NCBI GenBank assembly: GCA_963762115.1
Contig: CAVXJH010000006.1
Location: 96,001 to 160,000, forward strand
Direction: 5' to 3'
DNA length: 64,000 bases
Source: Candidatus Babeliales bacterium
Lineage (GTDB): Bacteria; Babelota; Babeliae; Babelales; JANWKD01
Shown here: positions 3,773 through 53,878 of the stretch, one piece after another
Layout of the letters: each line of letters opens with the position of its first letter
Numbering within the stretch: position 1 is the first letter of the stretch
Translations under genes and position numbers: made by a program
The notes under the pieces: model-generated
Database searches by the model: none
What the model was told of the DNA's origin: nothing
The model's input: the letters and a program-made list of their open reading frames with translations, nothing else

Positions 3773-6307
3773 ATGATTGCACAAATTTTAGCAAAAATTA
3801 TGGGTACAGCAAATGTACGCCAATTAAAAAAGCTAAGGCCTATAGTCGAAAAAATAAACAATTTAGAAAAAACTATAAGCAGCCTCACCAATGAACAATT
3901 AACAGCCAAAACTAATGAATTTCGAGAAAAATTAAGTCAGGGCAAAACACTTGATGATATTTTGCCAGAAGCATTTGCTGTTGTTCGTGAAACAGCCAAG
4001 CGTGAATTAGGGCAACGCCATTTCGATGTTCAGCTTATTGGCGGCATCGTACTCCATCAAGGTAAAATTGCCGAAATGAAAACAGGTGAAGGCAAAACAT
4101 TAACAGCCACACTACCCCTCTATTTGAACGCATTAACCGGTAAGGGTGCTCATTTAATCACGGTGAATGATTATCTGGCACGCCGAGATGGCACATGGAT
4201 GACTCCTATTTTTAATCGTTTAGGCCTTACGGTTGGCATTTTACAAAATCAAATGAGCGATCAAGAGCGTAAAGCTGTTTATAACGCTGATATTGTCTAC
4301 GCCACCAACAATGAACTTGGCTTCGATTACCTGCGCGATAACATGAAATTCAGATTAGAAGATTATGTACAACGAGAGTTACACTATGGCATTGTCGATG
4401 AAGTTGACTCAATTTTAATCGATGAAGCACGAACACCCCTTATTATTTCAGGTTCATCAGATAAAAGCAGTCAATTATATGCACAAGCAAATTCAGTGAT
4501 ACCACGCCTCAAACAAGGTGAAGATTTTGAAGTTGACGAAAAAGCCCGCTCGGTACAATTAACAGAGTCAGGTGTTGATAAGGTTGAAGCAGCATTTCAT
4601 ATCGATAATCTCTATGCCATTGAACATTTGACGCTTTTACATCATATTAACCAGGCATTACGCGCGCACATACTCTTCAAAAAAGACGTTGACTATGTGG
4701 TAAAAGATGACGAAGTACTTATTGTTGATGAATTCACCGGCCGCATCTTACAGGGACGCCGCTATAGTGACGGTTTACACCAGGCAATTGAAGCAAAAGA
4801 AGGCGTTACCATTGAACGCGAAAGTCAAACATTAGCATCAATAACCCTACAAAACTTTTTCAGACTCTATAGTCGATTAGGTGGTATGACAGGAACTGCT
4901 TTAACAGAGGCCGAAGAATTTCATAAAATCTATAAACTCGATGTTGTTTCAATTCCCACCAATCAACCAATGATTCGTCTTGATAAACCTGATCTCATTT
5001 TTTTAACAAAAGATGCAAAATACAATATTATTGCCCAAGATGTTAAAGAACGTTATGAAAAAGGCCAACCTGTCTTAATTGGTACTATTGCCATTGAAAC
5101 ATCTGAATATTTAAGCAATATTCTTAAAGCTCATGGCATTCCCCATGAAGTTCTTAATGCAAAACAGCATCAAAGAGAAGCTGAAATCATTGCAAATGCC
5201 GGAAAATCTGGTCATGTTACTATTGCAACCAATATGGCTGGACGGGGAACCGATATAAAATTAACCCCTGATTCAATCAATGCTGGCGGATTATATATTT
5301 TAGGCACCGAACGACATGAAAGTCGTCGTATTGACAATCAATTACGCGGTCGCTCTGGACGCCAAGGCGATCCTGGAGAATCACGTTTCTATATTGCTTT
5401 GAACGATGAATTAATCAGAGTTTTTTCTGGCGATCTTATTGAAAAGAATATGCGCCGCGTCGGCATGAAAGAAGATGAAACAATCGAATCACGATTTATT
5501 TCAAAAACAATTGAAAATTCACAAGAAAAGGTTGAAAAACGCAATTTTGATATTCGTAAGCATTTACTTGAATATGATGATGTCTTAAATCAACAGCGCA
5601 TTGTCGTGTATGGGTATCGTCGATCAATTTTAGAAGGCAACCAAGAAATTTATGATCTTGTACGTGACTTAATAAGCCAATCAGTACATGACATGATCAT
5701 TGAATTTTGTTCTGCAAAAAATGTTTCAGTTGAATGCTTCAACAACATGCTTAAACCTTTGAGCGTGATGACAGGATTCTCAATTGAAGATCTACAAAAA
5801 GAAGGCTTTAATACTAAAAATTCAGAAACTCTTGAGACTGATATCACCAATTTCTTACTCATGAAATATGAACTTTACCGCAATCAGCAAAAAGGCGAAA
5901 TGATCCAAGAAGCTGAACGTTGGCTTATGCTTGAAACATTGGATAATGCTTGGAAACAACACATGCTCAATTTAGGCCACCTCAAAGAAGGTATTGAACT
6001 GCGCAGTTGGGGTCAAAAGAATCCTTTAATTGAATATAAGCGCGAAGCATTTGCCATGTTCCAAGAAACAATGCAACAAGTAAGATGGGATATTGTGCAT
6101 CACATTTTCCATTTGAATCTTGAACGCTTTAATCAAACTGAACTCGAAACCAAACGCCGACGTGAACTTGATGAACTTAATTTGATCTCTTCAAATATGG
6201 GTGATAATGAAAGCCCAAAAACGGTGGAACGTAAAGAAGATAAAGTTGGCAGAAATGATCCATGCTCATGTGGGTCTGGTAAAAAGTATAAAAAATGTCA
6301 CGGATAA
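3773..6307 (+). CDS. secA: Preprotein translocase ATPase SecA
   Basis: 'AEMKTGEGKT', 'DEVDSILIDEARTPLIISG', 'ATNMAGRGTDI', 'QLRGRSGRQGDPG', C-terminal SEC-C 'GRNDPCSCGSGKKYKKCHG'; start moved to ATG 3773 after GGAG RBS. Confidence 0.98.
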   Translation: MIAQILAKIMGTANVRQLKKLRPIVEKINNLEKTISSLTNEQLTAKTNEFREKLSQGKTLDDILPEAFAVVRETAKRELGQRHFDVQLIGGIVLHQGKIAEMKTGEGKTLTATLPLYLNALTGKGAHLITVNDYLARRDGTWMTPIFNRLGLTVGILQNQMSDQERKAVYNADIVYATNNELGFDYLRDNMKFRLEDYVQRELHYGIVDEVDSILIDEARTPLIISGSSDKSSQLYAQANSVIPRLKQGEDFEVDEKARSVQLTESGVDKVEAAFHIDNLYAIEHLTLLHHINQALRAHILFKKDVDYVVKDDEVLIVDEFTGRILQGRRYSDGLHQAIEAKEGVTIERESQTLASITLQNFFRLYSRLGGMTGTALTEAEEFHKIYKLDVVSIPTNQPMIRLDKPDLIFLTKDAKYNIIAQDVKERYEKGQPVLIGTIAIETSEYLSNILKAHGIPHEVLNAKQHQREAEIIANAGKSGHVTIATNMAGRGTDIKLTPDSINAGGLYILGTERHESRRIDNQLRGRSGRQGDPGESRFYIALNDELIRVFSGDLIEKNMRRVGMKEDETIESRFISKTIENSQEKVEKRNFDIRKHLLEYDDVLNQQRIVVYGYRRSILEGNQEIYDLVRDLISQSVHDMIIEFCSAKNVSVECFNNMLKPLSVMTGFSIEDLQKEGFNTKNSETLETDITNFLLMKYELYRNQQKGEMIQEAERWLMLETLDNAWKQHMLNLGHLKEGIELRSWGQKNPLIEYKREAFAMFQETMQQVRWDIVHHIFHLNLERFNQTELETKRRRELDELNLISSNMGDNESPKTVERKEDKVGRNDPCSCGSGKKYKKCHG

Positions 6308-6711
6308 AAAATAGTTTTCTTTTTTTACTGTTTTTTTGTTTTTATACATCTTTAGAAAGTATGGAGCGATTTAAAAAGTCGCTCCCTTTGATCTCTAAAA
6401 AAGCCACTTCAAATAATTCAACCAACGATCTTGATCATACTCTAGCTTTAGCGCGCAAAAATCATGATTTCAGCATCATTGCACAATTACCTTGTATCAT
6501 TAAAAACGGTTCACCACAAAAGATAAAAAAAACAAATAAAGCAATTCGACGCCATTTTCTAAAAAGAATCGACAAAGCTACATCACAAGAAAAATTAATG
6601 GCTTTGCATAGAGAAATCTTAGAAAAAATAGATTTTATTGAAAATACCCATGAATATGAATTACTTGGCCAAAGCCTTTATAACAAATGGCATGAGATTT
6701 ATAAAAGATAG
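6295..6711 (+). CDS. Hypothetical secreted protein (signal + ME motif)
   Basis: Overlaps the secA stop; hydrophobic N-terminus ending SLES-MERF. Confidence 0.6.
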   Translation: MSRIKNSFLFLLFFCFYTSLESMERFKKSLPLISKKATSNNSTNDLDHTLALARKNHDFSIIAQLPCIIKNGSPQKIKKTNKAIRRHFLKRIDKATSQEKLMALHREILEKIDFIENTHEYELLGQSLYNKWHEIYKR

Positions 6712-6829
6712 TTATCATTTATTTTTTTATAAATCTCATAAAATGAAGTATCAGATTTACATAGCGCTTAGTAGTTGATTTACATAAAAAACAGATAAAA
6801 ATCCTGAAAAAATGAAGGGATAATCTTAA

Positions 6830-7360
6830 CTAAACTTTAATGCATTGTTCATCAATAGCTATTTTATAACTAGCGAGCCATAGTTGTTTACAAGTATCAA
6901 TTTTATCCAACTGACTTATCAGTTTTTCATAAAAAACAAAATCTTCATTATTCGTTGTTCTATTGAGAACCTGATTATAACATTGAACATAGTTGCGCAA
7001 TTGCCATTCAAATTCATCTAATAATTGAATATCACGAACAAGTGTTTGATCTTCTAGGGCACAATTCAACTCACCGTCATATTGCGCAAAATAATGTTGT
7101 ACAAAATTATGAATACGCCGTTTCTTTTCTGACAACGGTTCCATTTCTGACAACAATACCGGCGTTTCAGAACAATACCTTTGTTGTATATTTTTCATAA
7201 AATTGTCACTTTGTTCAATACTGTTTTCAGCTTCTTTTCGCCATCCTTCTGCTGTTTTCATTCTGCATTCATCATTATTGTAATAATTTGCCGTCTCGGT
7301 AATCTGAAAAACTAAACATAACACCAGGCAAAGTGTTGTTTTAATATTATTTTCTGTCAT
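6830..7360 (-). CDS. Hypothetical protein, probable N-terminal signal
   Basis: 176 aa ORF with a hydrophobic N-terminal segment; no recognised motif. Confidence 0.55.
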   Translation of the reverse strand: MTENNIKTTLCLVLCLVFQITETANYYNNDECRMKTAEGWRKEAENSIEQSDNFMKNIQQRYCSETPVLLSEMEPLSEKKRRIHNFVQHYFAQYDGELNCALEDQTLVRDIQLLDEFEWQLRNYVQCYNQVLNRTTNNEDFVFYEKLISQLDKIDTCKQLWLASYKIAIDEQCIKV

Positions 7361-7449
7361 TTTTATTTACTTTCAATAATTTGATAATAAAAATATATAT
7401 CATATTTTACATAAAAAAATAAAATTTATATATAAAAATTATGCTATAA

Positions 7450-7734
7450 TTATTGTTTTAAAGGCTTTATTAAAGAAGGGTTATTATAATTAATTTTGTT
7501 TCTAAGCCACATTTGATTATTTTTTGCTTTTTCAGAAGCTCTTTGATCTTCACTTTTTAACTTCTTTGAAAGATTTTTATTTTGATGATGTTTAGCTTTT
7601 TCCAAAACACGTAACAAAATAGTATTTTCTGCACTATTTTTACTTCTAATATATTCTAAATCTTTAGATTGTTGCATACAAAAACTTGAAACAACAAATA
7701 ATCCTGCAAAAAAACTTAGTGCCGTCTTTTTCAT
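7450..7734 (-). CDS. Small basic secreted hypothetical protein (signal + MQ motif)
   Basis: MKKTALSFFAGLFVVSSFC-MQQ; Lys-rich mature part. Confidence 0.55.
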   Translation of the reverse strand: MKKTALSFFAGLFVVSSFCMQQSKDLEYIRSKNSAENTILLRVLEKAKHHQNKNLSKKLKSEDQRASEKAKNNQMWLRNKINYNNPSLIKPLKQ

Positions 7735-17105: not shown

Positions 17106-17954
17106 CTACTTTTTTTCTTTTCGTGCAGCTTCAAGACGATTTTTCAGGTATTTTCGCAGCTTTACTTGTGTTTCATGCAGAGTATCCAGAATTTCTTTGC
17201 TATATTTTTTTATCCAAGCTTTTCTTCCCGTTTTTTTTGCAAGATCTTGCAACGCTTTATTGGGATAATAAAAAGCATTTTCAATATCTTTAACTAATTG
17301 ATTAAAATTGATAAAGATTTGAGATATAACACCCGGTTGATCAACAACATCAAGAAATTGTATATTAAATTTTAAAGCATTAGCAAGGCGCGATAGAGTT
17401 AACACCGTCGGTTCATTTTGAAATTTTATAAATTGATTGCGAGCATTGGTCACTGATTGATCAAATAACGTCTGTTGAAATTCACGATTTTTTTGATTAA
17501 TATAGGGCTCTATAAGTTCTTTTTGGTCTTTAAATGTCATATAAACTGTTTCATGAAATTCTTCTTGTATTGATGAATTAACACCACGATTTTTCATATT
17601 TTGATTAATACGAACTATTTTTTCATCAATATCAGAAAGCATATTTCTGAGCTTTCGTAATTTTTGTAAATCTAAATCTTCTAAATTTTCAAAAAGCAAT
17701 TCATGAAAAATCATTTCTATAAGTTGATCTAACCTATCTTCCGAAGGAATTTTGGAAAAATCATCAAGCAATCTTGAAAAAGATGCCAACTGTTGAAAAA
17801 TATCAAAACTAGGAATTTGTTTAGTTTTTTTTAAAGCATTTTCAAGATCTTGTAACTGTTGATCAAGTTGCATCAAAGTTGATGAAAGTTCTTGCTGTTT
17901 TTGCATCCCAAAAGCAGTAGATACAAAAAAAGTAACGATAAGTATTCTCTTCAT
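17106..17954 (-). CDS. Secreted helical/coiled-coil hypothetical protein (signal + MQ motif)
   Basis: MKRILIVTFFVSTAFG-MQKQ; heptad-like LxxLDQQLQDLE; AGGG RBS. Confidence 0.65.
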   Translation of the reverse strand: MKRILIVTFFVSTAFGMQKQQELSSTLMQLDQQLQDLENALKKTKQIPSFDIFQQLASFSRLLDDFSKIPSEDRLDQLIEMIFHELLFENLEDLDLQKLRKLRNMLSDIDEKIVRINQNMKNRGVNSSIQEEFHETVYMTFKDQKELIEPYINQKNREFQQTLFDQSVTNARNQFIKFQNEPTVLTLSRLANALKFNIQFLDVVDQPGVISQIFINFNQLVKDIENAFYYPNKALQDLAKKTGRKAWIKKYSKEILDTLHETQVKLRKYLKNRLEAARKEKK

Positions 17955-19624: not shown

Positions 19625-19625
19625 A

Positions 19626-22637: not shown

Positions 22638-24998
22638 CTACGAATTCTCTTTAATATTGGGCTCTGCAATACTTTTCTCAGAATCATTAGTTTCATCATC
22701 AACTTCAAACTTCATCATCTCTTTAAGCTTAACATGAATAGATCCCATAATACTGCTCCTCGGCTCATTCGATTCCTCAACCATTCTATGCTCCTCCCTA
22801 ACTCCATTTCTCTCTTGAATTTTTATAATCTCATTCGTTTCATTATCAACTCTATAACCTATTTCCTCTATACCAAGCCAATCACGCTGTATCGACTCTC
22901 TAATCCTCTCAGTAAAAGGTGCATAGCCAACTCTATGATCTATCTTTACACCAGTCATCTTTGCCCTACGCTCATCTATCGCTTCATCCAAAGATCGAAA
23001 AATACAAACACTATCATTCATTTCATCATCAATATCATTTTGCTCTTTTTTTTCTCCCTGCAAATCGTCTGTACCTTCAAAATCATATCCCTTATTTACA
23101 ATTTCATCCTCGAAATAAGATTTTCTTTTTACAATATTTTTTTCAGATAAACTTTGCTCAACAACTAAATCAATATCTGTTTCATCTATCGACGCATGAC
23201 TTTCTTGAGAATCGCTCAAAGCATCAAATTCAGCAGCTAAACTATGTTCATCATGCTTTTGAACTCTATTTTTTCTTTGTAGCATTCTTTTTAAATAATT
23301 TATTTTTTCTTTAGTTTTTGTTTTGATCTTTTTAAAACTGGAATCGGTTTCTTTTCCTTCAATCGGTGCATTACTATGATGCATTTTTGCTTTAGGATTG
23401 GTTGTATCTTTTGGAGTACTATCTTTTTCTGCCTCTTTTTCACCATCACTTTCATCATCTGACGAATATTTTAAATCAGGCATTGCATCAAAAGTTTCTT
23501 GAACTATATTTTCAAAAAGTTCTTCATTGGCTACTTCATTAGGCATATTTTCTTCATTAGAATCAGATTTTTTATTCTTTTGATCCATAGCTTTTCTTTT
23601 CAAAAATTTTATAACTTCATGATGGCCTTTTGAAATTGCTTGCAATAAAGGTGAATCTTTTCCCAATTTGCTATCAATTTGAGCGCCACTTTTTACCAAT
23701 TTTTTAACAAGTGATAAATATCCTTTTCCTGCAGCATAAAAAAGAGCGTCGTAATCTTGCTTATCTTTTATGGTAATATCAGCTCCAAGATCAATAAGAA
23801 GTGCGGCTATTTTAGGGTTTCTGAAGTTAATGGCTTTAATCAGCGGCGTTGAACCTTGGTCATCTTGCTCATCAATATTAGCACCATGTTCAATTAATAG
23901 TCTCACAATCTTAAAGCATGTCTTTAAAATTTGATTGTGAGCAGCACTTTGTTCAATCGCATAAGCTTGATTCCTTTGAAGGATAATGCGCGATTCATCG
24001 TCTAAGGGAATATTATTGTCGATATTCTTTTCAATATTATAAGCCGCAATCATTAACTGCATTTTGTTCTGTGGAATAATATATTCAATACTTGAAGTAG
24101 CAATCATTAAGGGTGTTGTGCCATTTGTAAGAGGTAGATCAATAAAAATTTCTTTATGATTTGCCAATTTTTCTACGATTCCAAAATTACGATTTTGACA
24201 AGCTGTTGCAAGCGCCGTCCAACCATCCACCTCTTGTGCATTAACGTCAATAGTTTCATTCTCTAACAATCGTGTTACTTCTGCTAAATCATTCTCGCAA
24301 ACGGCGAGTATTAATGGAGGACAACTTGAAATAATTTGTGGTTTTTTTGTTGAAAACCCAAGATCGGCTTCTTTTTTTCGGTAAATTGCCTGAATTTTTC
24401 TTTGAATTTCTACAGAAATTTTACGTTTATCAAGAAGATATTTTACCGTATTTATACTTGCTTGAACTTTTTTCTTAAATTTCCCCTCTTTCTTTGTCTT
24501 CTTAGCTTTTTTAGGTTTTTTTGTATGAGCGGTTGCTTTTTTTGTGGGGTTATTAATAGGCTTTTGAGTTTTACTCATTTTTTCAGAAGCTAATAATCGA
24601 TCAACAATATAATCAAAATGATATGTGCGAGCACAAGAAAGAGCCGTTTCTCCTTTTTCATCTGAAATATCACCACGAGCTCCATGATCAATGAGATCTT
24701 CAGTGATTTTAAAATTACCTAATCTAATAGCTTCCAATAATGCCGTTGAGCCATCAAAAGCTTGTGCATTAATGTCAGCCCCGAATGCAATAAGTTTATG
24801 AACAAGTTCAGCATCTTTTGTTTGAACAGCAAAAATTAATGGCGTAATATCACCAATATTTTCATTGAGATTACCACCTTCATGCATCAATCTTTCAATT
24901 TTTTCTCGTAGATCCTGATTATCCATTTCCATGCCGAAAATGGGTAATGAAGTAGCAATAGATAGAAAAATGGTTAAGAAAATAATATGTTTCTTCAC
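22638..24998 (-). CDS. Secreted ankyrin-repeat protein with basic patches and acidic low-complexity tail
   Basis: GTG start with AGGAG RBS; signal ending IFG-MEM; multiple ANK repeats (GSTALLEA, GWTALATA, GTTPLMIA, GSTPLIKA..GADI). Confidence 0.88.
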   Translation of the reverse strand: MKKHIIFLTIFLSIATSLPIFGMEMDNQDLREKIERLMHEGGNLNENIGDITPLIFAVQTKDAELVHKLIAFGADINAQAFDGSTALLEAIRLGNFKITEDLIDHGARGDISDEKGETALSCARTYHFDYIVDRLLASEKMSKTQKPINNPTKKATAHTKKPKKAKKTKKEGKFKKKVQASINTVKYLLDKRKISVEIQRKIQAIYRKKEADLGFSTKKPQIISSCPPLILAVCENDLAEVTRLLENETIDVNAQEVDGWTALATACQNRNFGIVEKLANHKEIFIDLPLTNGTTPLMIATSSIEYIIPQNKMQLMIAAYNIEKNIDNNIPLDDESRIILQRNQAYAIEQSAAHNQILKTCFKIVRLLIEHGANIDEQDDQGSTPLIKAINFRNPKIAALLIDLGADITIKDKQDYDALFYAAGKGYLSLVKKLVKSGAQIDSKLGKDSPLLQAISKGHHEVIKFLKRKAMDQKNKKSDSNEENMPNEVANEELFENIVQETFDAMPDLKYSSDDESDGEKEAEKDSTPKDTTNPKAKMHHSNAPIEGKETDSSFKKIKTKTKEKINYLKRMLQRKNRVQKHDEHSLAAEFDALSDSQESHASIDETDIDLVVEQSLSEKNIVKRKSYFEDEIVNKGYDFEGTDDLQGEKKEQNDIDDEMNDSVCIFRSLDEAIDERRAKMTGVKIDHRVGYAPFTERIRESIQRDWLGIEEIGYRVDNETNEIIKIQERNGVREEHRMVEESNEPRSSIMGSIHVKLKEMMKFEVDDETNDSEKSIAEPNIKENS

Positions 24999-31705: not shown

Positions 31706-31975
31706 TTACTCTTCAGACTGACATGATCGTTCAAACATAAGATCTTCACTTGATGAAATATACACATGATCATCTTTTTTATAAGACTTTACTGTTGTAT
31801 CAATTTGTTTTTTGTCTTTAAACATTCGTTTTACTGATAAAAATGTATGGATGTTATCAATAATGTTATGCAAGAATGTATCATATTCTATTTCTGTCAC
31901 TAATTCCATCGACAAACTAGAACAAAAACATAAAAATGCGCATATCGTAACAGGCAAAAAAAACCTTTTATTCAT
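31706..31975 (-). CDS. Small secreted hypothetical protein (signal + ME motif)
   Basis: MNKRFFLPVTICAFLCFCSSLS-MELV. Confidence 0.5.
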   Translation of the reverse strand: MNKRFFLPVTICAFLCFCSSLSMELVTEIEYDTFLHNIIDNIHTFLSVKRMFKDKKQIDTTVKSYKKDDHVYISSSEDLMFERSCQSEE

Positions 31976-36517: not shown

Positions 36518-38503
36518 TTATTTGGCGTTACCAAATTCCTTATTTAAAAAAGCTTTAACCGTATCTGCGTTAGCTTTTATGTTAAATTCAGCAATACCTG
36601 CCAATTGCTTAAATTGAGGAAGTGTATAATCAAAATTAAGAAAGCCACAAAAACCATTGGTATTACTTATGCAATTAGCGTCAAAAGTGGATAAATTGTT
36701 TTCATCAATAAACTTTTTTAAGATTGGATTAGCTTGTGCTTTTTTAATAAGCGCATCATCTCTTACAAAATTAAAATAAATAATGCGCGGCGCCTGAGCA
36801 TGCTGCATATCTTTATATAATCGTAATGTTGGTGTTGATTTGTCATCAACCCGTTTATACGTATACCCATAAAGCCGCTGTGCATCTTTAAAGAACTTAC
36901 TCAGCTCTCCAGATTCTTCATTTTTTTGAAAATTATCACCCGAAGTATCACCAATAATAATTGCATTTACGTTGCGTGATGGACGTAATAAGGGCAAAAC
37001 AGGAATATTATAAGAAATACCAGCATCAACATACATCAATTGATCACTTGTTTTTAATGATTTTGGCACATTAGAAAAAGAAGCATTTTTATAAGGATTA
37101 AATGTTAATGAAGGAAATACACGCATAGTGTTAACTGACGTTGGTAAAACACTGATAAGATTAACCAATGTTGCCGCAATTAAATACTGAGTTGCTTCAG
37201 TACTCATTTTTTGCGCTGCTTGAGCTTTTAATCCATCTATTATTTTTTGAATATCAATCAAATTTACCAAATAAGCTGAACCAAAAGTCCCCATTAAATA
37301 ACCTAATGACTGTTGCGGAGAAATTTCTTTTGCTTTTCCTTGGTCAAATAAGCTCCCAAAAGAATATGTCGGCATAGCTGTTTTATATTCAAGATTTCTT
37401 ACTTCTAAGGGAGTAAATTCATTCCAATTATAATCTTGTTGGCCAGCACTATTAGTATAAACATTGACTGAAGTAAAAAGAGGGAACGGCTTATTACCAT
37501 CTTTAACATGATCCCATACATCAGTTAAATGGTACTTTCTAATAGTAGGATCTAATAAAGCTTTCGATAATAATGAACCATATATATCAACAGAACTTAT
37601 TGATTGATTAAAAAGAAATTTCGGCCAAAGGTCAGCAACTAATGCTTCTAAGTATTCAGGTTTTAGATAACCAGAATTATCAAAAGCAATTGTTTGAATA
37701 TTAAATTTTTTATCTTTTATTTTTTTTTCAAGTGATTGTTGAAAAGAATGTATAGAATTATTTGAAAATAACCAAGGCATCAAAAACCATGTTGAACCGG
37801 AAAGAGCACTTATATAACTTGTTGCATCTAACAGCCCAAGATCTTCAAGTGCGGCAAGATACCCTGATGTTAATATCATTGCACGATAACCACCACCAGG
37901 AGCAACATAGCCTAAAGTAATTGGCTTATTTGGCTGCTTATTAAAAAACTTTCCCCATCCTTTTTGTATAGTTTTTTGACGATTTTTCAAAAAAATATTC
38001 TTTTCATCACTCAATAATTGATCATTTTGTATAAGATTAGCAGCTTTATTTTTAAAGGGATTATCACGATTAGCATCTAATTTTAATTGTGGTATTTCAT
38101 TTTTTTCCCAAAAATCATATAAATAGTCCCACCCATCTATAAGTTGACCGGTAACCGTTTGATTTTTAGTGGCAATTTCTTGTAAAACGGTCATATCAAA
38201 TGAATCCAAATCATTACTTGCTTTAACAAGCAAAGCATTTTGTTGTTGTTGCAAAGAATCAATGGCGTTTTTTGTTGAATCATTTACCATGCCAGCAGTT
38301 TTTGATTGTTTTAAAGAAGTATTAATTTGATCTTGCAATGCATATAATTGTTTTTTATAAGAATGAAATAATGCATCATTATGAGGTTTAGCAAAAGCAA
38401 GAACATATTCAGCGTTCTGATAGGCAAAATCAAACCAATCTCTGCCAAAAGCATTATCAGAAATAAACATAATGCATACAAAAAAAATAATTTTTTTTAT
38501 CAT
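36518..38503 (-). CDS. Secreted cPLA2/lysophospholipase (PLA2_B-like) catalytic-domain protein
   Basis: Oxyanion/Arg motif 'GGGYRAM', nucleophile 'ALSGSTW', 'PFPL', 'EFTP', 'MGTFGSA', catalytic Asp 'VDAG'; signal peptide. Confidence 0.85.
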   Translation of the reverse strand: MIKKIIFFVCIMFISDNAFGRDWFDFAYQNAEYVLAFAKPHNDALFHSYKKQLYALQDQINTSLKQSKTAGMVNDSTKNAIDSLQQQQNALLVKASNDLDSFDMTVLQEIATKNQTVTGQLIDGWDYLYDFWEKNEIPQLKLDANRDNPFKNKAANLIQNDQLLSDEKNIFLKNRQKTIQKGWGKFFNKQPNKPITLGYVAPGGGYRAMILTSGYLAALEDLGLLDATSYISALSGSTWFLMPWLFSNNSIHSFQQSLEKKIKDKKFNIQTIAFDNSGYLKPEYLEALVADLWPKFLFNQSISSVDIYGSLLSKALLDPTIRKYHLTDVWDHVKDGNKPFPLFTSVNVYTNSAGQQDYNWNEFTPLEVRNLEYKTAMPTYSFGSLFDQGKAKEISPQQSLGYLMGTFGSAYLVNLIDIQKIIDGLKAQAAQKMSTEATQYLIAATLVNLISVLPTSVNTMRVFPSLTFNPYKNASFSNVPKSLKTSDQLMYVDAGISYNIPVLPLLRPSRNVNAIIIGDTSGDNFQKNEESGELSKFFKDAQRLYGYTYKRVDDKSTPTLRLYKDMQHAQAPRIIYFNFVRDDALIKKAQANPILKKFIDENNLSTFDANCISNTNGFCGFLNFDYTLPQFKQLAGIAEFNIKANADTVKAFLNKEFGNAK

Positions 38504-38690
38504 CCTATCCCCAATAACATAAAATGCTTGTAATTTTCCTTTCTTTTACAACCTCTTAATTATTATAGTTTGAAAATAACACAATATTCAACAATTTTTA
38601 TTATTGCAAAATGAAATATCAAAAAAAATATTTCTTATTTAGAAATTGAATACTTGCTTAACGCGAATTTGATAAGAAAAGATAATTCTG

Positions 38691-38791
38691 ATGTCATTCT
38701 GAGCACTCCTTGAGTGCGTAAGAATCCAGGTATAAGGTTTTTTCATTTTATTGACTGGATCACTACGGAACTTCGTTCCTCATGATGACAT
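38691..38791. repeat. Short palindromic REP/RPE-like element (family A)
   Basis: atgtcattctgag..agaatccag...ctggatc..ctcatgatgacat; terminal atgtcat/atgacat with an internal hairpin in each arm. Confidence 0.7.
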
Positions 38792-38874
38792 TCTGTTAAA
38801 ATGGTGAATTTTGCTTGTAGAAATCTATATTACTTCGTCAAGTTCATAAAATTTTGAACGTATCAAATTCATGT

Positions 38875-38912
38875 AAAAGCCCATGGATTTAATCAAAAAT
38901 CCATGGGCTTTT
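38875..38912 (-). terminator. Intrinsic terminator after the beta-helix gene pair
   Basis: aaaagcccatggattt...aaatccatgggctttt. Confidence 0.85.
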
Positions 38913-38933
38913 AAGAACTTTAATGAGTAATTA

Positions 38934-40844
38934 CTATGCTTGAATATCAAGGTTTGAAATCATAGAAGACTGTACCGTTGTAGCATTTGGTGGAACACCA
39001 CCAGAATAACTAAATGAAACAGCAGTTACAGAAAAAGGACCTGAATAAGCAACGGTATAATTTTTATAAATAAGATTACCTCCAGAAAATGGCGGTCCTG
39101 ATGATCCGTTGCTAATTGCAGTATTACCCGCAACTAATGTATTACTACTGCCTGATAATACCGATCCTCCACTCGTAAAGACGATATTACTATCAAAAAT
39201 ACCTGATTGATTATTTTTCAAGATAGAATTATTGCTAATTTCATTAAAATTAGCACCATTTGCACCATCAATAAAAATTCCAGCACCAAAAACAACATTT
39301 GTTGCTGGTGTTCTTGGATTGTTACCTTCAGCAACACAATCAACAATTACTGATGAAGATTCGCTTGGTCCAAGCCCAAACCCATAAGCTGTCGGTCCAA
39401 CATTAAATGATCCAGTACAATTGGAAAATACATTTCCTTGTCCATTATCCGCTAGAAACCCATATGAACAAATCGAGATACCATTATTAGCATTTGCGAC
39501 ACATGATTCTATAAGATTGCCTATACCACTAACGCTATGTAATCCATAAACACAAATACCAACATTAAGATTCATAGAAGAGCGAGCTACTCGACAATAA
39601 TTACAACCTATAAGCGATATTCCTGCCGAATTTACTGCTCCCGATCCGTTTCTATCAACCAAACAGCTTTCAATTATCACATTTTCACAATTTACCAAAG
39701 AAATACCGCCGAGAGCAAGACCCGCTGTTGCACATAATGAAATGTTACATTGTTTAATTATACTTTCAGCAATGGGGGAACCACCAAAAGCAAAGAAATT
39801 AATACCCGATTCTGCTGCCTGAGTTATCGTTAAATTCATAATTTTTAGATTGGAAGCACCACCAAAAACTCTAATACCATCAAAAGCTACATTATTAATT
39901 TCACCATTTTTAATAGTAATATTTTCAAGGCCGGAATTAATTTGAATTCCTACATTAGCAACTCCCGAACCTAAAATTGATCTTCCACATAAATTAAAGG
40001 TGACATCACTTGAATTAATTATGAAAATGGAAGCTGCATTGGAAGTTATATTTTCAGTTAATACATAATTTCCCGGTGAACTTATCGTAAATGATCCACC
40101 CAATGCATCAATCAATCCTTGTGTTATAGAAATATTATGACAACCTGTTGCAAGACTGTTGAGCACAGAAAAGGTTCCATTAAATTCATTGGTGATATTA
40201 GCACAACACTCTGTTAACGTATTTTTAACATCAAAAATTGCCGTAAACGTGCCATTAAATTCATTGGTGATATTAGCGCAACATTCCGTTATTGTATTTT
40301 TAATATCTATAATTACCGTAAATTCATTTATAATAGAACCAATTCTTACTTGTATTTGACGCAATAACGCCTCAATTATTGAAAGATTACATGATGAACC
40401 AGGTCCAACAATATTTGATGATACACCTTGACGGGGCGCTCTTGTTTGCATTTGTTGAAATTCGGCAATCAAATCAGGAAAAGCTTTTTTAAGATCTTCA
40501 ACAGAAAAATCATTACTATTTTTACATACCTGTTCATAACATCTTAATAATCCATTAGAAAGACGATTTTCAATGCCTTTTTCTAATGCATTGTTAACCA
40601 AAGAAATAAGAAACGGCTTAAAATGAGGATTATCTATCGTTATATAACCAAGATCAGTATTATTTTCTTCTAAGGCAGACTCTATCATGTTGTAATATAA
40701 TTGAGCACTTTGAAGTTTAGATTTTTCTTTCATATTTTTTGCTATTGAATTTTTTTTAAGCCCTTTTTCTCTGGATTTAGCATCAAGCAAAAAATAAACC
40801 GATTGCAAACTTATTAGTATGAACAAAAAACGAAATAGCTTCAT
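38934..40844 (-). CDS. Secreted Cys-Cys coiled-coil / beta-helix protein (paralogue of 221-2821)
   Basis: Signal peptide; 'APRQG..GP..CNLS', 2x 'ECCANITNEFNGTF', 'ISSPGNYVLTENI', beta-helix rungs; start at ATG 40844 after AAGGA. Confidence 0.75.
   Translation of the reverse strand: MKLFRFLFILISLQSVYFLLDAKSREKGLKKNSIAKNMKEKSKLQSAQLYYNMIESALEENNTDLGYITIDNPHFKPFLISLVNNALEKGIENRLSNGLLRCYEQVCKNSNDFSVEDLKKAFPDLIAEFQQMQTRAPRQGVSSNIVGPGSSCNLSIIEALLRQIQVRIGSIINEFTVIIDIKNTITECCANITNEFNGTFTAIFDVKNTLTECCANITNEFNGTFSVLNSLATGCHNISITQGLIDALGGSFTISSPGNYVLTENITSNAASIFIINSSDVTFNLCGRSILGSGVANVGIQINSGLENITIKNGEINNVAFDGIRVFGGASNLKIMNLTITQAAESGINFFAFGGSPIAESIIKQCNISLCATAGLALGGISLVNCENVIIESCLVDRNGSGAVNSAGISLIGCNYCRVARSSMNLNVGICVYGLHSVSGIGNLIESCVANANNGISICSYGFLADNGQGNVFSNCTGSFNVGPTAYGFGLGPSESSSVIVDCVAEGNNPRTPATNVVFGAGIFIDGANGANFNEISNNSILKNNQSGIFDSNIVFTSGGSVLSGSSNTLVAGNTAISNGSSGPPFSGGNLIYKNYTVAYSGPFSVTAVSFSYSGGVPPNATTVQSSMISNLDIQA
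40177..40283 (-). repeat. 75-bp (25-codon) tandem repeat in the beta-helix gene
   Basis: ccattaaattcattggtgatattagcRcaaca at 40177 and 40252. Confidence 0.8.
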
Positions 40845-40876
40845 TATCCTTTTACCTCTCAAAAAAATTTTATTTT

Positions 40877-42625
40877 TTAATAACTCTTATCAAAAATTAT
40901 ATTTCCCATTACTATTGTTTTGCTTTTATCCAAAATCTCTTCAGATGAAAATTTAATCAAACTCGTGTCATAAATTCCTGCATGAGAATTATAAATAATA
41001 CTATTGTTTTTAATAATATTGGCATAAGCACCTGAAATACCATCGATAAAAATACCAACACCGGCACAGGTAGCATTATTTGATTCTGCACGAGAATCTA
41101 TTATCGATGATATTATTTCTGTTTTTGCAAAATTAAAACCATAGGCATTTTGTCCATTATTATTAGATGCAGAACAGTTGATAAATAAATTTTGTTTTCC
41201 ACATTCTGTTGAAAAACCTAAAGCAAGTCCTTCAGAATTATTATTATTTGCCTGACATGCTTGTACAATAATATTGCTACTCTCAAACATTTGTAATCCA
41301 AATACCGTAATAGCTGCTGTATTAAAATTCATAAAAGAATTATTAATAGAACAATTAGTACATCGATTGAGTAATACACCTCCAGAAAAGGATGCTTTGA
41401 TAAAACCATTGCGATTAAAAAAACAATTTTTTATAACAATCGAATCACAATGCGTAAGCGTTAACCCACCCATTGCACCGTTTATATCAGTAGCACATGA
41501 ACTAATATGACAATTTTTCAATAAACATTCTCGAACACAACCATCATCACCATCAAAACCATTCAATATAATTCCTGATTTTTGACAATTATTAACAGAA
41601 ATATCTTTGATAGTTATATGAGAACTATTGGGTAAAATTTTTATGCCACAATCACTAAAATTATCAATATGACCATTCTTTATGGTAATATTCATATGCC
41701 CTGGATTTATTTGAATCCCTCTAGATGACCCATTTTCGCCGGATATTTTTCGCCCATTAAGATCAAAACAAATATCATTTGCCTCGATAATAAAAGAAGT
41801 GTTTTCTTTTATTACAATATTTTCAGCTAATAAAAAATTACCTGAATGATTAAAAACTAAACTATCAGCATAATTATCAACCAAACTTTGTGTTATAACT
41901 CTATAAGGCGATGATTCAGGAGACTCTATAATTGCTCTCGGCACTGCACAACAAGCAGTAACCTCTGCCAATATTGATGATAAAGAACTTTCTATCGAAG
42001 TACAACAGGTAGCAATTTGCTGTCCCAAAGATGAACAACAAATGGTCAATTGTGTTGAAAGATCAGAAATAGCACTAAGAATGGCACTTTCTGCGGCAGC
42101 AATCTGCGCCATAATTTTATATAACAATGAAAAAGTACTATTAAAATCCATTTGCATAATAACACAACATTCAATTACTTCAGCCTCTATCCTGCTCAAC
42201 AGTTGCCCAACAAGGACAAGATTGCAAGGAGTTGAACAACTTTTATGTTCAAGCAATTGATTTTGATGTTTCTGTAATCTTCCCGCTAAATAGGCAAACA
42301 AATCTGGCATTGCTTCTTTAAGATCCTTAACACAAACTTCATTTTTTCCTGCTATACATTGCGCATAACAATTTAACAAGCCTTGCGATATAACAAGTGA
42401 CAATCCTTCTTTCTGTGCATCCTCAACTGCATCAATCATAAATTTGATAAGAAGTTCATTATCGAGAATAACATATAAAGGCGCATCAGATTTTTCAACA
42501 AACGGCACCGATTGCGTCTGAGTTAATGATAAAAAATCAGATGTTTGTGCGGCATATAAAAAAGATACTTTGCTCTGTAAAATAAAAATTATCAAAAAAA
42601 ATTTAAAAATGGCTATAATTCTCAT
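40877..42625 (-). CDS. Secreted Cys-Cys coiled-coil / beta-helix protein (third paralogue)
   Basis: Signal ending LYA; 'IECC','TICC','ATCC','TACC'; 'SGNFLLAENI..ICFDLNG', 'NITIKNG'. Confidence 0.75.
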   Translation of the reverse strand: MRIIAIFKFFLIIFILQSKVSFLYAAQTSDFLSLTQTQSVPFVEKSDAPLYVILDNELLIKFMIDAVEDAQKEGLSLVISQGLLNCYAQCIAGKNEVCVKDLKEAMPDLFAYLAGRLQKHQNQLLEHKSCSTPCNLVLVGQLLSRIEAEVIECCVIMQMDFNSTFSLLYKIMAQIAAAESAILSAISDLSTQLTICCSSLGQQIATCCTSIESSLSSILAEVTACCAVPRAIIESPESSPYRVITQSLVDNYADSLVFNHSGNFLLAENIVIKENTSFIIEANDICFDLNGRKISGENGSSRGIQINPGHMNITIKNGHIDNFSDCGIKILPNSSHITIKDISVNNCQKSGIILNGFDGDDGCVRECLLKNCHISSCATDINGAMGGLTLTHCDSIVIKNCFFNRNGFIKASFSGGVLLNRCTNCSINNSFMNFNTAAITVFGLQMFESSNIIVQACQANNNNSEGLALGFSTECGKQNLFINCSASNNNGQNAYGFNFAKTEIISSIIDSRAESNNATCAGVGIFIDGISGAYANIIKNNSIIYNSHAGIYDTSLIKFSSEEILDKSKTIVMGNIIFDKSY

Positions 42626-45987: not shown

Positions 45988-46677
45988 ATGATAAAAAAAC
46001 TATTATTATTAAAGCTTTTGAGTTTAGCATTCATAATGAACTCGCATTGTATGGAACAATCGTTAACAGAATTACAAAGCCAATTAAGATATTATCAAGA
46101 GGAAGCACGTAAAGGAAATACTTCAGCTCAGGAAGAGGTACAATATCTTTTAGGAGAAATCAGACGTTTATACCCACAAGCACAACGCGGAGGAGCACAA
46201 CCTCAACGAGGAATTCAGCAATTACCTCCTGTTAGCGCTGAATGGATCGACTATTTAAAAGCTACTGAAAGTTCTAATGATCCTAATGCACTCAAAGAAG
46301 GTTTACAGGTATTTGATAATGCAGTTAGAGATCAAGCAGGAAAATTAAAGGCTACAGTACAAAAAGAAGCTCTGGATCTCATTAATCGCATCAAGGCCAA
46401 GTTAGCACGATTACAACAACCACAAAGAAGAGTGCAACCAGGCCCACAACCAACTCCAGGAAGACCCGCAAGACCAGTAAGCACCGGGCCAAGACCAACA
46501 GTAAAACCTAGGCCAGTAAGCACAGGACCTGGTCAGGTACGCCCAGGACAAGTAAATCAAGCAGAGATTGATCGTTTACATGATGCTGCTTTAGATGCTG
46601 TTGAAAAGGTTGTTACTGCAGCTCGCGCAGCCGGTCAAAATGAGATAGCAAATATATGGATGAAACTAGCACAATAA
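45988..46677 (+). CDS. Secreted hypothetical protein with Pro/Arg/Gln-rich repeats (signal + ME motif)
   Basis: Signal ending SHC-MEQ; 'RPVSTGP' twice. Confidence 0.65.
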   Translation: MIKKLLLLKLLSLAFIMNSHCMEQSLTELQSQLRYYQEEARKGNTSAQEEVQYLLGEIRRLYPQAQRGGAQPQRGIQQLPPVSAEWIDYLKATESSNDPNALKEGLQVFDNAVRDQAGKLKATVQKEALDLINRIKAKLARLQQPQRRVQPGPQPTPGRPARPVSTGPRPTVKPRPVSTGPGQVRPGQVNQAEIDRLHDAALDAVEKVVTAARAAGQNEIANIWMKLAQ

Positions 46678-47835: not shown

Positions 47836-49275
47836 TTATAAGTTTGCTAATCCAAAAGAACCAACACCACACTTAGCAGCAATTTTATCCATTAGTGCTT
47901 TTTCTTGTGCATATACTTTATTTAAAACACATTGCGCACAAGGAACCCCACGTTTTTGAGCTCTAATTAATTTAACAAGTTGACCATTAACAAAGTTTGT
48001 AATTAATGCTTTTAATTCCTGATCATTACCTGCTAAGGTATTCGCTTTATCTAAAGCTGCTTGATCATAAGTAGAAGCAATTTGTATTAATAAGGTTACA
48101 ATTTCAGCCTTAGGATTTGCATGTACAACATTAACAACTCTATTAACAATACCTTGATTAACTTGTCTATCAAGAACAATAGGAGCTGCAACATAACCAG
48201 CGCCAGCTTGTGGTCTTTGCTGATGATTCATGTTATTATTTTGACCAGCAGGAACACCGTTTGGTTGTTGAGGAGCTTGGTGATTATTTACAGGAGCTTT
48301 AACTTTTTTTGCTTTAGGAGCAACAACAGGCTTTTTCCAAGCTTTATATGCTTTAAAAGCACCATAACCAACAACAGGAGCAGCAGCAACAACACCAAGA
48401 CCGATTGCAGTTTTGGGGTATTCTAAAGCTTTAGCAACAACAGGAGCAACAACATATTTGTTAGCTAATTTTGCAGTACCAACAACAAAGTCTTTTGATT
48501 TACCAGCAATATTTGATACCATCTTAGGTGTATCAGCATAACCAAAATAGTTTGCCGCACCAACAGCAAGACCAGTTACAGCAACACCAGCAGCAGAACA
48601 TCCTGCAGCTATTTTATTGCTAAATCTTGAACCAACATTGTAAGCTGCAACAGCAGCGCCAGCGCCAAGAGCTACATAAGGGTTAGCAACAGATTTAACT
48701 ACATTTAAAGCAGTTTCAGGATACATATAAGCAAGTGTACCTAAAGTAGTTGCTGTTGCAACAACAGCAGGAACACTAAACTTCCAATGTTTCTTCATTA
48801 GAACTAATGCGCCTGATTTGTGTAATAAATAAGAAACTGAACCTACGGTTACCATGCCACAGAAGCCTTGAGCAAGAAATTCTCTATCAGTTGCTTTTTC
48901 AACAACAAAATCCTTGCATGAAGTATAACCTTCAACAACAGCTGTTTTGCCTTTAGCTAATTTTGCTGCTGCTTTTGCTGCAATGCCTTTTGCTTCATTT
49001 GGTGTAAGAACTTCAACTAATTCATTAGTGAATTCTTGATTTGAAGCGTCAGAAACTGCTTCAACAACAGGAGCTTGATTAGCGGCAAGTTTATTTAAAC
49101 CGTAACCAGCAGCTCCGGCAGAAGTTACTCCAGCCATTAAAGTACCCGCTCTTTTAACAAGATCAGGTCCAACATGCTGTACTACCTTAGAACCGAAGTT
49201 AACCATAGGGTAAGTTTGAGAGATTGCTGAGAGCATAACCAGCCCCAGCATAGATTTATTAAAATTAGAGTTCAT
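47836..49275 (-). CDS. Ala/Val/Gly-rich multi-hydrophobic-segment hypothetical protein
   Basis: GGAGG RBS before ATG 49275; several hydrophobic stretches; strong GCT/GTT/GGT codon bias; Q/N-rich linker. Confidence 0.75.
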   Translation of the reverse strand: MNSNFNKSMLGLVMLSAISQTYPMVNFGSKVVQHVGPDLVKRAGTLMAGVTSAGAAGYGLNKLAANQAPVVEAVSDASNQEFTNELVEVLTPNEAKGIAAKAAAKLAKGKTAVVEGYTSCKDFVVEKATDREFLAQGFCGMVTVGSVSYLLHKSGALVLMKKHWKFSVPAVVATATTLGTLAYMYPETALNVVKSVANPYVALGAGAAVAAYNVGSRFSNKIAAGCSAAGVAVTGLAVGAANYFGYADTPKMVSNIAGKSKDFVVGTAKLANKYVVAPVVAKALEYPKTAIGLGVVAAAPVVGYGAFKAYKAWKKPVVAPKAKKVKAPVNNHQAPQQPNGVPAGQNNNMNHQQRPQAGAGYVAAPIVLDRQVNQGIVNRVVNVVHANPKAEIVTLLIQIASTYDQAALDKANTLAGNDQELKALITNFVNGQLVKLIRAQKRGVPCAQCVLNKVYAQEKALMDKIAAKCGVGSFGLANL

Positions 49276-52094: not shown

Positions 52095-52907
52095 ATGAAG
52101 TTCAGATTAAACGTGCTGTTCATACTCATATGCTTAAGCAATTTCTCACCTAATAAAGCTGCACTCGACAAAAAAACAATGCCCGAAGAAAATAAACCTC
52201 AAATTGATCCTGCATTCTTGACGCTATCAAAAAGATTACCCCTACCAACTTATGAAATTGTACCATTTAGATTTGATAAAATTCCCTGGTTAACTTCTGA
52301 GCAATTATCGCAGCATATGGAACTTTATAAAGGATATGTTAATAAGCGAAATGAAATAGCAAAAACGTTAAAAAAAGTTGATCCTTCCAAAGCATCTGGC
52401 GTTACCTATTCAAAATACCGCTCACTCAAAACAGCGGAAACATTTGCCATGAATGGCGACATTTTACACAGGCTTTATTTTCAAAATATCAGTGAAAAAA
52501 AATCACAAAAACCTGGTGAGCAAATGATGAATTTAATTATTGAAGCATTCGGCTCCCTTGAATCATTCAAAAATGATTTGTTTGCTTGTGCAAGCTCATC
52601 ACGAGGCTGGGTACTTACTGGTTATTCCCTTGATGATAATATGATTCACAATTTCTTGCTTGATGCACATAATCAAACGGTTCCCGTTCTTGTCATGCCT
52701 TTATTAGTGCTTGATGTTTATGAGCATGCTTATTTCCTTGATTTTGGCACCAAACGCCCATCGTATGTTCAACTGTTCTGGAGCAATATTAATTGGGATG
52801 TTGTTGAAGAACGCATCAATAAATGGGTTAATCCGCTTATTAAGAAATGTGAAGTTCCTGAAGAAAAAAATGAGAAAATTGAAACTTTAACAGCTTCCAA
52901 AAAATAG
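52095..52907 (+). CDS. Fe/Mn superoxide dismutase family protein with signal peptide
   Basis: 'QHMELYKGYV', 'LHRLYF', 'FGSLE', 'GWV', 'LDVYEHAY..DFG', 'INW'; hydrophobic N-terminus. Confidence 0.88.
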   Translation: MKFRLNVLFILICLSNFSPNKAALDKKTMPEENKPQIDPAFLTLSKRLPLPTYEIVPFRFDKIPWLTSEQLSQHMELYKGYVNKRNEIAKTLKKVDPSKASGVTYSKYRSLKTAETFAMNGDILHRLYFQNISEKKSQKPGEQMMNLIIEAFGSLESFKNDLFACASSSRGWVLTGYSLDDNMIHNFLLDAHNQTVPVLVMPLLVLDVYEHAYFLDFGTKRPSYVQLFWSNINWDVVEERINKWVNPLIKKCEVPEEKNEKIETLTASKK

Positions 52908-52983
52908 CATAAGGTATTTCTGATTCTTCAAATACCTTATCTAAAATAAATTTTTGTTTTCACGTTTTAGTTTATAAATTATC

Positions 52984-53496
52984 AATATTATTCGGCCCTA
53001 TGCGGGCAGGCATGAATATATTGCGTGCCCAATATATTCAATACAAGGGCAACTAAGAGAAGAATCTCTTAGTAATCTCTCTTAACGCAAAAAAGTCGGA
53101 CTTGATCATTGCATGCTCAAAGTCCTCCACCAGTTTTGCTAATGAGGAAATTTTTGATTTTATCCGATGACTTGCGATTGATAATTATCTACTTCGTAGA
53201 ATCACAATTGTCATCTTAAAAAGCAAATCAACAAAGTTATAAATAATACTGGATTCTGAATCTACTTTGCTAAAAGCTTCGTAGGTTCAGAATGACATTT
53301 CTCATTTCGAAAGAAAATTTATAAATATATGTTAGTCCGGTAGTGCGTTGTGCACCCGAAAGAATGATGCGCAGCATCATGATGTGTGGTGCATATACGC
53401 GCGGAAAAAATGATCCAACGGAACGTTGGGGCCCTTGTATCAAAGGTATTGGGCAAACAATACCTTTGTGCTGCCCGCATAGGGCCAAATGATATT
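52984..53496. repeat. ~510-bp hairpin-rich element bounded by inverted family B units (52984-53050 and 53431-53496), containing a family A right arm (53249-53301)
   Basis: aatattattcggccctatgcgggca...atacaagggc on the + strand; the same unit is on the - strand at 53431-53496. Confidence 0.8.
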
Positions 53497-53548
53497 AAAA
53501 ATAAATATTACTTTTGTTTTAAGATATTAAGCAAACCATAAATAATTA

Positions 53549-53878
53549 TTAATCCACAATTTTATTTTGTGCATCAAGTATCGCCAATAAGCGCGCACTT
53601 AATTGTCGATGAGATGCTATATCACTCTTTTCCATTGCATGAATTTGGGAATTATTAATAAAATTATACCCTAACTTAACTTCAATATCAGCCAACTTCT
53701 TCTCTTTAGGAAAATATCTTACAAGACGATTATCATTCCTTTTAGCTGTACAACTTTGCATACCTACAGTTATCTGTGGAATGGTTGTACCAGGTACCGT
53801 AACAAGAACAAACTTTTCCATGCCACATGCAAAAGCAACAAATAAAATGCTACCTAAAAAAAGTATTATTTTTTTCAT
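53549..53878 (-). CDS. Small secreted hypothetical protein (signal + ME motif)
   Basis: MKKIILFLGSILFVAFACG-MEKF; start at ATG 53878. Confidence 0.6.
   Translation of the reverse strand: MKKIILFLGSILFVAFACGMEKFVLVTVPGTTIPQITVGMQSCTAKRNDNRLVRYFPKEKKLADIEVKLGYNFINNSQIHAMEKSDIASHRQLSARLLAILDAQNKIVD

Follow-up and report, generated by a model that had tools for sequence, protein, structure and literature searches.

The DNA examined here, referred to below as the window, is a stretch of 64,000 nucleotides from Candidatus Babeliales bacterium (assembly GCA_963762115.1, contig CAVXJH010000006.1, positions 96,001 to 160,000 of the forward strand). Nine proteins encoded in the window have a Sec-like signal peptide that ends in A, G, S or C and is followed directly by Met and then Glu or Gln. 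The same arrangement occurs throughout the genome that holds the window, that of a bacterium of the protist-parasite type (G000; 1.53 Mb, 34% GC, 7 contigs), where well over 200 unrelated proteins have Met directly behind a predicted Sec signal peptide. This +1 Met signature, which we refer to as the M-rule, was confirmed as real and genome-wide in G000.

The +1 Met signature in G000

A purpose-made codon model called 1406 genes in G000, and 720 of these had signal-like N-termini. Of these, 530 were kept as confident; the remaining 190 were dropped because of a weak h-region, a weak cleavage site or at least two downstream membrane spans. Cleavage was scored from the residues at -1 and -3 and from distance only, which leaves the score blind to the residue at +1. 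The blind cut fell on Met in 152 of the 530 confident proteins (29%). Met makes up 0–5.7% of residues when the cut is shifted to flanking offsets, and the proteome background is 1.8%. After families were collapsed to one protein each, the cut fell on Met in 107 of 417.

A relaxed rule, accepting Met after A, G, S or C at the end of the signal, marked 239 of the 530 proteins as tagged. The same rule marked 5 of 180 proteins in the tag-negative relative G016 and 5 of 87 in samples of six other relatives, and its false-positive rate is therefore about 3–6%. A likely false positive in the window is 44350 (VVG↓MSL). An extended class of 275 tagged and 285 untagged G000 proteins was used for the later tests.

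The hallmarks of Sec export and of signal peptidase I (SPase I) are present, with a basic n-region, a hydrophobic h-region and small residues at -1 and -3. Around the tagged sites, L, S, A, I, V or T occupies -3 and signal length is mostly 17–24 residues. Mets at positions 15–34 are preceded by A, G, S or C in 63% of cases, compared to about 20% for deep Mets. Cys stands before the Met in 26 tagged proteins, of which 2 have a lipobox-like motif, and SPase II lipoproteins are not indicated. The individual cleavage sites before Met are predicted from these features.

All nine motifs reported for the window in a preliminary description of this DNA are present (Table 1). A tenth protein, offered there as a variant (47836), is not supported, as Pro is not enriched before Met (2% compared to 3%). 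The labels WD-like for 29789 and outer membrane barrel for 44350 had no meaningful family match.

Start codons of tagged genes

In-frame ATGs can initiate translation and leaky dual starts are known, so that the inner Met might be a true or alternative start codon yielding cytoplasmic forms. Of the 239 tagged genes of G000, 46% have a Shine-Dalgarno motif ahead of the first Met and 1 of 239 (0.4%) has one ahead of the inner Met, compared to 3% for deep internal Mets. The synonymous codons preceding the inner ATG are near background and show a weak bias at most (GGC, p = 0.025; GCC, p = 0.79), and a full n-h-c signal structure is retained upstream. The Shine-Dalgarno evidence places the start at the first Met, and the objection that the inner Met is the real start, which the preliminary description had anticipated, is highly improbable. 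The idea that the inner ATG has a Kozak-like DNA signal was also considered and rejected; the pattern there is explained by the amino acids encoded, and synonymous bias is weak.

Gene callers may pick the inner Met as the start and so hide the signal. An ATG-only listing missed the signal of the ankyrin gene at 22638 by starting it inside; the GTG start codon of this gene (24998) is preceded by a Shine-Dalgarno motif. The start of the gene at 6295 falls within the final codons of secA (6295-6307), without a clear Shine-Dalgarno motif, and translational coupling is possible.

Proteins that carry the tag

The tag is restricted to effector-like proteins and is rare on predicted envelope proteins. 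A Pfam scan covered 203 signal-peptide proteins (20 fetched regions and the window) of about 560 in G000. Ankyrin/WD40 proteins were tagged in 16 of 18 cases, compared to 4 of 52 other Pfam-named exported proteins (p = 2.6e-10), and 69 of 133 signal-peptide proteins without a Pfam family carried the tag. The four tagged proteins among the 52 are a DNA ligase, a PvcA-like enzyme, a methyltransferase and a J-domain protein. Some false signal calls (Rossmann enzymes, membrane anchors) among the 52 inflate this contrast somewhat. Solute-binding proteins, an amidase, FKBP, thioredoxins, superoxide dismutase (SOD), fasciclin, beta-helix and phospholipase A2 (PLA2) proteins are untagged. This agrees with the enrichment claimed earlier for effector-like over envelope proteins, and within the window the motif is missing, as had been claimed, from the thioredoxins, the SOD, three beta-helix proteins and the PLA2 protein.

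Conservation of the +1 Met codon was judged from paralogues only. In paralogue families the +1 Met is kept while +2 varies and indels follow; a few pairs differ at the tag, with Met-Glu in one and Ser-Asp in the other. Among homologue pairs below 40% identity, both members were tagged in 58, one in 16 and neither in 35. A tandem array of 12 paralogous ORFans (G000:C6:349268-359960) has near-identical signals, a +1 Met and indels directly behind it. Two PvcA-like enzymes differ, one having signal↓Met-Glu (L045:3096-5410) and the other lacking it, which hints at different destinations. Contig ends at G000:C3:585999-586382 and C6:584669-585163 carry genes with identical N-termini, and contig C4 carries second copies of C3 genes; assembly overlap or slight contamination is possible.

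The residue at +2

In G000, D, E, N or Q follows the Met in 219 of 275 tagged proteins, compared to a local background of 27.5% (160 of 209 with families collapsed). Together with His (15 of 275) these residues make up 85%, and E alone makes up 52%. Small residues, which allow cleavage by methionine aminopeptidase (MetAP), were found in 23 of 275 (8%; background 33%), bulky hydrophobic residues in 10 of 275 (4%; background 24%) and K or R in 8 of 275 (background 14%). In a second genome, G022, D/E/N/Q occupies +2 in 63 of 117 tagged proteins, with D dominant, and small residues in 16 of 117. Held-out relatives had D/E/N/Q in 12 of 28 tagged proteins, and other families were mixed. The +1 Met is the constant and the acidic +2 a lineage-dependent preference. 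The Met-Glu/Gln motif of the preliminary description describes the nine window proteins; +2 is D/E/N/Q in 80% in G000 and looser elsewhere, and the invariant is the Met.

The D/E/N/Q counts given above for G000, G022 and the held-out relatives are also those of starts of the NatB type. NatB is tethered to the ribosome and acts co-translationally (PMC11735805). Acetylation of delivered effectors by NatB, as originally proposed, is doubtful because this enzyme works at the host ribosome, which proteins made in the bacterium bypass.

The Met might also be a historical scar, a neutral leftover from signals grafted onto genes that once encoded cytoplasmic proteins or came from the host, in front of their start codon. 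One J-domain protein has its Met at about what we take to be the usual DnaJ start spacing, but the spacing differs in other tagged J-domain proteins. The second residue of G000 cytoplasmic proteins is dominated by K, I, L and N, with E at about 3%, far from the +2 spectrum of tagged proteins. The Met survives in divergent families despite changing +2 and following residues, and no common DNA cassette was seen among the signal sequences. A scar of this kind is improbable.

Distribution in Babelota and in a second lineage

The signature is patchy across Babelota. The same pipeline applied to the main contig of G016 gave a blind +1 Met in 2 of 180 proteins, compared to 152 of 530 in G000 (p = 1.5e-19), and the samples of six other relatives gave 0 of 87. 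In G022 (960 of 1229 kb), 62 of 346 proteins had a blind +1 Met and 117 of 346 were tagged by the relaxed rule. A pattern written at the DNA level, MKK-hydrophobic...[AG]-Met-[EDQH], which finds MKK starts only, was scanned across 214 Babelota genomes; kin among these are not independent. It gave 845 matches with Met, compared to 233 when Met was exchanged for Phe as a control. Phe matches numbered at most 5 in any one genome, and 50 of 214 had at least 6 for Met. Families f1, f3, f5, f7, f11, f12, f17 and f19 were enriched; f4, f6, f8, f14, f16 and f18 were at background and f13 slightly above (22 compared to 13). Within one family, matches ranged from 0 to 30.

A scan of all genomes was dominated by background among the matches listed; in their flanks a blind +1 Met was found in 5 of 94, a small and noisy control that is above G016. 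Among 401 genomes from the same class as an alphaproteobacterial record, the pattern reached a maximum of 4, and clean matches were mainly in small genomes. Both TLC and VipB of the type VI secretion system were found in 4 of 5 small alphaproteobacterial genomes tested. The type VI secretion system is a Holosporales trait (PMC11909080), and we infer from the combined profile that this second lineage is Holosporales-like. A looser pattern in 41 genomes of the order of one such genome (G241) gave 165 Met and 201 Phe matches, and an excess is thus absent from the raw counts. By eye, in 150 listed rows each, about 50 were clean, in-frame signal↓Met-Glu/Asp, compared to at most 9 for Phe. This manual count on partial lists suggests that the signature recurs by convergence in an unrelated alphaproteobacterial order.

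An atlas search with the N-terminal 45 residues returned no usable match, and a plasmid search for ankyrin returned nothing relevant. A methyltransferase family was rejected as a bridge to other phyla; its few named matches are Babeliales/Dependentiae, and the longer members inspected have no signal peptide.

Possible host-destination signals on tagged proteins

Signals that function only in eukaryotes are commoner on the tagged proteins of G000, in support of the interpretation in the preliminary description; relatives did not replicate this. CaaX tails, often behind basic residues, end 16 of 275 tagged proteins, compared to 2 of 285 untagged proteins and 3 of 686 in the cytoplasmic set. Counted by family, they occur in 11 of 209 tagged and 2 of 226 untagged (p = 0.009). 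Such tails on exported proteins suggest prenylation by the host. Unrelated exported G000 proteins at L050:3987-6566, L048:1803-4668 and L053:7538-7948 end in basic residues and C-I-I-S or a similar CaaX. Motifs resembling nuclear localization signals were found in 58 of 275 tagged and 23 of 285 untagged proteins (p = 1e-5).

Some tagged proteins have an Arg-rich, acid-free leader behind the +1 Met, with motifs resembling mitochondrial processing sites, in the forms that we assume for these. In G022 such leaders occur on 6 of 117 tagged and 0 of 229 untagged proteins, and 5 of the 6 have a +2 residue outside D/E/N/Q/H; held-out data add one clear case, in G014. Atlas and PDB searches with a 930-residue presequence-bearing protein gave only weak matches to ankyrin-like features and no PDB match. 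The phylum is known for remodelling host mitochondria (PMC6561590), and the tag would point to mitochondrion-targeted cargo in it.

These signals are less consistent elsewhere, and this weighs against delivery to the host. CaaX enrichment is absent in G022 (0 of 117 tagged, 2 of 229 untagged), and in held-out relatives CaaX is on untagged proteins (0 of 28, 3 of 45). The excess of nuclear-localization-like motifs is not significant in G022 (22 of 117 compared to 28 of 229; p = 0.11). Presequence-like leaders are significant neither in G000 (4 of 275 compared to 1 of 285) nor in held-out data (1 of 28 compared to 1 of 45) and were defined by a rule written after the sequences had been inspected.

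Export and processing machinery

Type II secretion core genes and Sec are present in G000, including secA, two secretins, an ATPase and pseudopilins; G000 also encodes divergent ATP/ADP translocases. Two gspD copies and type II secretion genes are likewise reported for TM6, another name for the phylum (PMC4776705). Secretins were found in the second, alphaproteobacterial lineage as well. A periplasmic reader, either a type II secretion component or a chaperone, might recognise the free N-terminal Met and route proteins outward. The sharp divide between effector-like and envelope proteins, a Met far more constant than +2 across families, and the presence of secretins in both lineages are all consistent with a bacterial sorting tag of this kind. 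So is one genome pair: a prepilin peptidase and a type IV-like pilin of G000 (G000:C3:501149-502817) match G022 well, and in the single G016-G022 comparison the pilin is unmatched and the peptidase match weak in tag-negative G016. However, G016 retains both secretins, the ATPase and the pseudopilins, and subtraction of its 791 kb main contig from G000 and the 960 kb of G022 left no evident translocon. Exported proteins with CaaX or ankyrin repeats but no Met exist, the motif varies between 0 and 30 pattern matches inside one family, and a sorting tag alone leaves it unexplained why G000 avoids +2 residues that are bulky or permit MetAP cleavage. The second-step sorting tag of the preliminary description therefore found no support in machinery that follows the motif, and we regard a bacterial reader as possible, if rather unlikely.

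Two similar signal peptidase I (LepB) genes lie in tandem in G000; relatives have one to several copies, in short (about 290 residues) and long (about 400 residues) forms. An effect on the envelope side, in which Met either is favoured by signal peptidase at P1' or guards against periplasmic aminopeptidases, could draw on these two copies and on the precedent of a lineage-wide +1 rule, the Q-rule, that serves periplasmic stability (PMC10653852). Against it, the two tandem genes resemble each other, the rule is present in G014 with a single LepB and absent from G049 with two, and the predicted periplasm residents are the very proteins without Met. There is little probability in such an effect. 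A second signal peptidase dedicated to the tag was rejected, given the likeness of the tandem duplicates and a LepB copy number that does not track the motif.

An exported GNAT family was considered as the bacterium's own N-acetylase and rejected. It was found in 30 of 214 Babelota genomes and is not co-distributed with the motif: the query was unmatched in several genomes with high counts, namely G160, G164 and G183, and had matches in G049 and G041, whose counts are zero. An exported enzyme dependent on acetyl-CoA would also need host cofactor.

Host N-degron rules and the M-rule

Published lists of N-degrons suggest what a delivered protein would meet in the host. The Arg/N-degron pathway targets unacetylated R, K, H, L, F, Y, W, I, Met-bulky, N, Q, E, D and oxidised C, further pathways target GASTC and Pro, and MetAP removes Met if residue 2 is no larger than Val (PMC11441550). 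By elimination, we infer that a protein that never met the host ribosome has very few untargeted starts open to it, among them Met followed by a polar residue that is not small. This predicts the +2 spectrum of G000, with its excess of E, Q, N, D and H and its scarcity of small and bulky residues, and NatB is not needed for the match.

On balance, we lean towards the reading that the M-rule is selected by host N-degron and MetAP chemistry, with a host-like start that would protect proteins likely delivered to the host. Sec would export the precursor, and LepB would cut before Met. The cargo would then cross the outer and vacuole membranes, possibly via type II secretion or vesicles. In the protist cytosol its unacetylated N-terminus would meet N-degron systems, and Met with a non-small, non-bulky +2 would escape both MetAP removal and the Met-hydrophobic degron, so that destruction in the host cell would be slower. 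A minority of proteins may have a two-part address, a bacterial signal first and a mitochondrial-presequence-like host signal second. A pressure from the host side would also account for the return of the signature in an unrelated lineage and for its patchy occurrence within families.

Several observations count against host protection. Any of the 20 residues may be destabilising in certain contexts, and Met-Asn and Met-Gln can slowly lose Met (PMC11441550). Val would escape too, yet +1 Val is not enriched, and the N-degron rules applied to protists are taken over from yeast and mammals. Bulky hydrophobic residues at +2 are no lower than background in G022 (25 of 117), and low-count families export ankyrin proteins with other apparent +1 residues, some of them destabilising (D, K, L). 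The heuristic cut falls exactly before Met in 4 of the 9 window proteins and 2–7 residues earlier in the other 5.

Comparison with known systems

Bacteroidetes reportedly follow a Q-rule, with Gln at +1 of most signal peptidase I substrates. Pyroglutamate formed under that rule, which involves a dedicated glutaminyl cyclase, protects against periplasmic aminopeptidases. Like the Q-rule, the M-rule is lineage-specific, concerns +1 of signal peptidase I substrates and is linked to stability of the mature protein. Unlike it, the blind +1 residue among the 720 signal-like proteins of G000 is Met (178) and not Gln (25), the rule is confined to effector-like cargo and spares envelope proteins, the selective agent would be the host, and no co-distributed modifying enzyme was found when exported GNAT was tested across 214 genomes. 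No published description of +1 Met in these bacteria was found; supplementary and subscription signal-peptide tables could bear on novelty, and the rule is apparently undescribed.

The Plasmodium PEXEL consensus is RxL, which lies downstream of the signal and is cut by a dedicated aspartic protease, followed by xE/Q/D at the new N-terminus. The M-rule shares with PEXEL/PTEX a two-step logic in which a cleaved signal exposes an N-terminus, but it is bacterial, has no dedicated protease and places Met at +1; no RxL-type Arg/Leu consensus was seen in the position tables around the tagged site in G000. For PTEX cargo, the mature N-terminus separates host-bound from resident proteins and signal peptidase can generate it (PMC10653839). 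A bacterial sorting tag would route proteins outward in a comparable way; no translocon is known to read +1 Met.

Bacterial proteins with eukaryotic sorting signals that act once they are delivered are known; reported examples are prenylation at the CaaX box of Legionella AnkB and of Salmonella SifA and the mitochondrial presequence of Anaplasma Ats-1. Those are type III or type IV cargo with their own start Met, whereas here a host-like start would be created anew behind a cleaved signal and on the scale of a proteome. Chromulinavorax destructans, of the same phylum, has signal peptides on 44% of coding sequences and 78% of ankyrin proteins (PMC6561590). Its Sec-exported ankyrin and ORFan secretome resembles that of G000; the excerpts of the two sources on this phylum (PMC6561590, PMC4776705) do not mention the +1 residue, CaaX or presequence-like leaders.

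Genes of the window and other features

The features are collected in Table 1. Upstream of the PLA2-domain cassette, window positions 34385-36134 hold two paralogous exported proteins without a Pfam match or a +1 Met.

Table 1. Features named in the text. Bare coordinates are whole-stretch positions of the window; G000 is the genome holding it, other G numbers are compared genomes, f numbers Babelota families and L numbers fetched regions. ↓, predicted cut; aa, amino acids.
Coordinates	Strand	Feature	Details
3773..6307	+	secA, Sec translocase motor that would export tagged precursors	NF009538, TIGR00963 above cut-off
6295..6711	+	ORFan, signal 22 aa then MER (SLES↓MER)	+1/+2 codons 6361-6366; Pfam match none
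7450..7734	-	ORFan, signal 19 aa then MQQ (SFC↓MQQ)	codons 7672-7677
17106..17954	-	ORFan, helical-looking, signal 16 aa then MQK (AFG↓MQK)	codons 17901-17906; Pfam match none
22638..24998	-	ankyrin-repeat protein, signal 22 aa then MEM (IFG↓MEM)	codons 24927-24932; Ank_2 E 7.7e-43
28984..29472	-	ORFan, signal then MEE (LNC↓MEE)	codons 29398-29403
29789..31627	+	ORFan, 612 aa, signal 28 aa then MEQ (LYA↓MEQ)	codons 29873-29878; no meaningful Pfam match
31706..31975	-	small ORFan, signal 22 aa then MEL (SLS↓MEL)	codons 31904-31909
45988..46677	+	Gln/Pro-rich ORFan, signal 21 aa then MEQ (SHC↓MEQ)	codons 46051-46056
53549..53878	-	small ORFan, signal 19 aa then MEK (ACG↓MEK)	codons 53816-53821; AFA↓C a possible alternative cut
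47836..49275	-	doubtful variant TYP↓MVN	Pro at -1
36518..42625	-	exported PLA2-domain protein and two beta-helix proteins	negative controls without +1 Met
52095..52907	+	exported SOD	negative control without +1 Met
59617..60702	+	two exported thioredoxins	negative controls without +1 Met
G000:C3:457976-459744 (L003, L004)		two similar LepB genes, tandem	
L160:17021-17692 (G022)		GNAT family	signal peptide or short hydrophobic start
G000:C6 near 224161, 224822, 240901, 415629		GNAT family	signal peptide or short hydrophobic start
L170:1048-1707 (G022)		signal and mitochondrial-presequence-like leader	Nuc/MitoPLD-family domain
L078:9614-10765; L136:851-1714; L138:12862-13635; L177:868-2361		signal and presequence-like leader	
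L065:12684-13325 (G014)		signal and presequence-like leader	

Implications

To our knowledge, Babelota and Holosporales-type bacteria cannot be genetically manipulated, and most of their effectors are ORFans. The tag separates about 230–275 candidate host-delivered proteins (about 17–20% of the 1406 genes) from envelope proteins and so provides a testable effector list. A bacterial Met reader and host protection could both hold. As a tentative extension, two unrelated protist-dwelling lineages might each have come on their own to address hundreds of effectors in two parts, a Sec signal and behind it a complete N-terminus of eukaryotic style. Met-acidic would then stand for cytosol or nucleus and Met with a presequence for mitochondria, and the +1 Met would be both read by an exporter and protective in the host. 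If true, the effector set and its destinations could be read straight off the genome sequence. More broadly, these results suggest that host N-degron chemistry may shape the secretomes of bacteria wherever signal cleavage gives proteins a new N-terminus.

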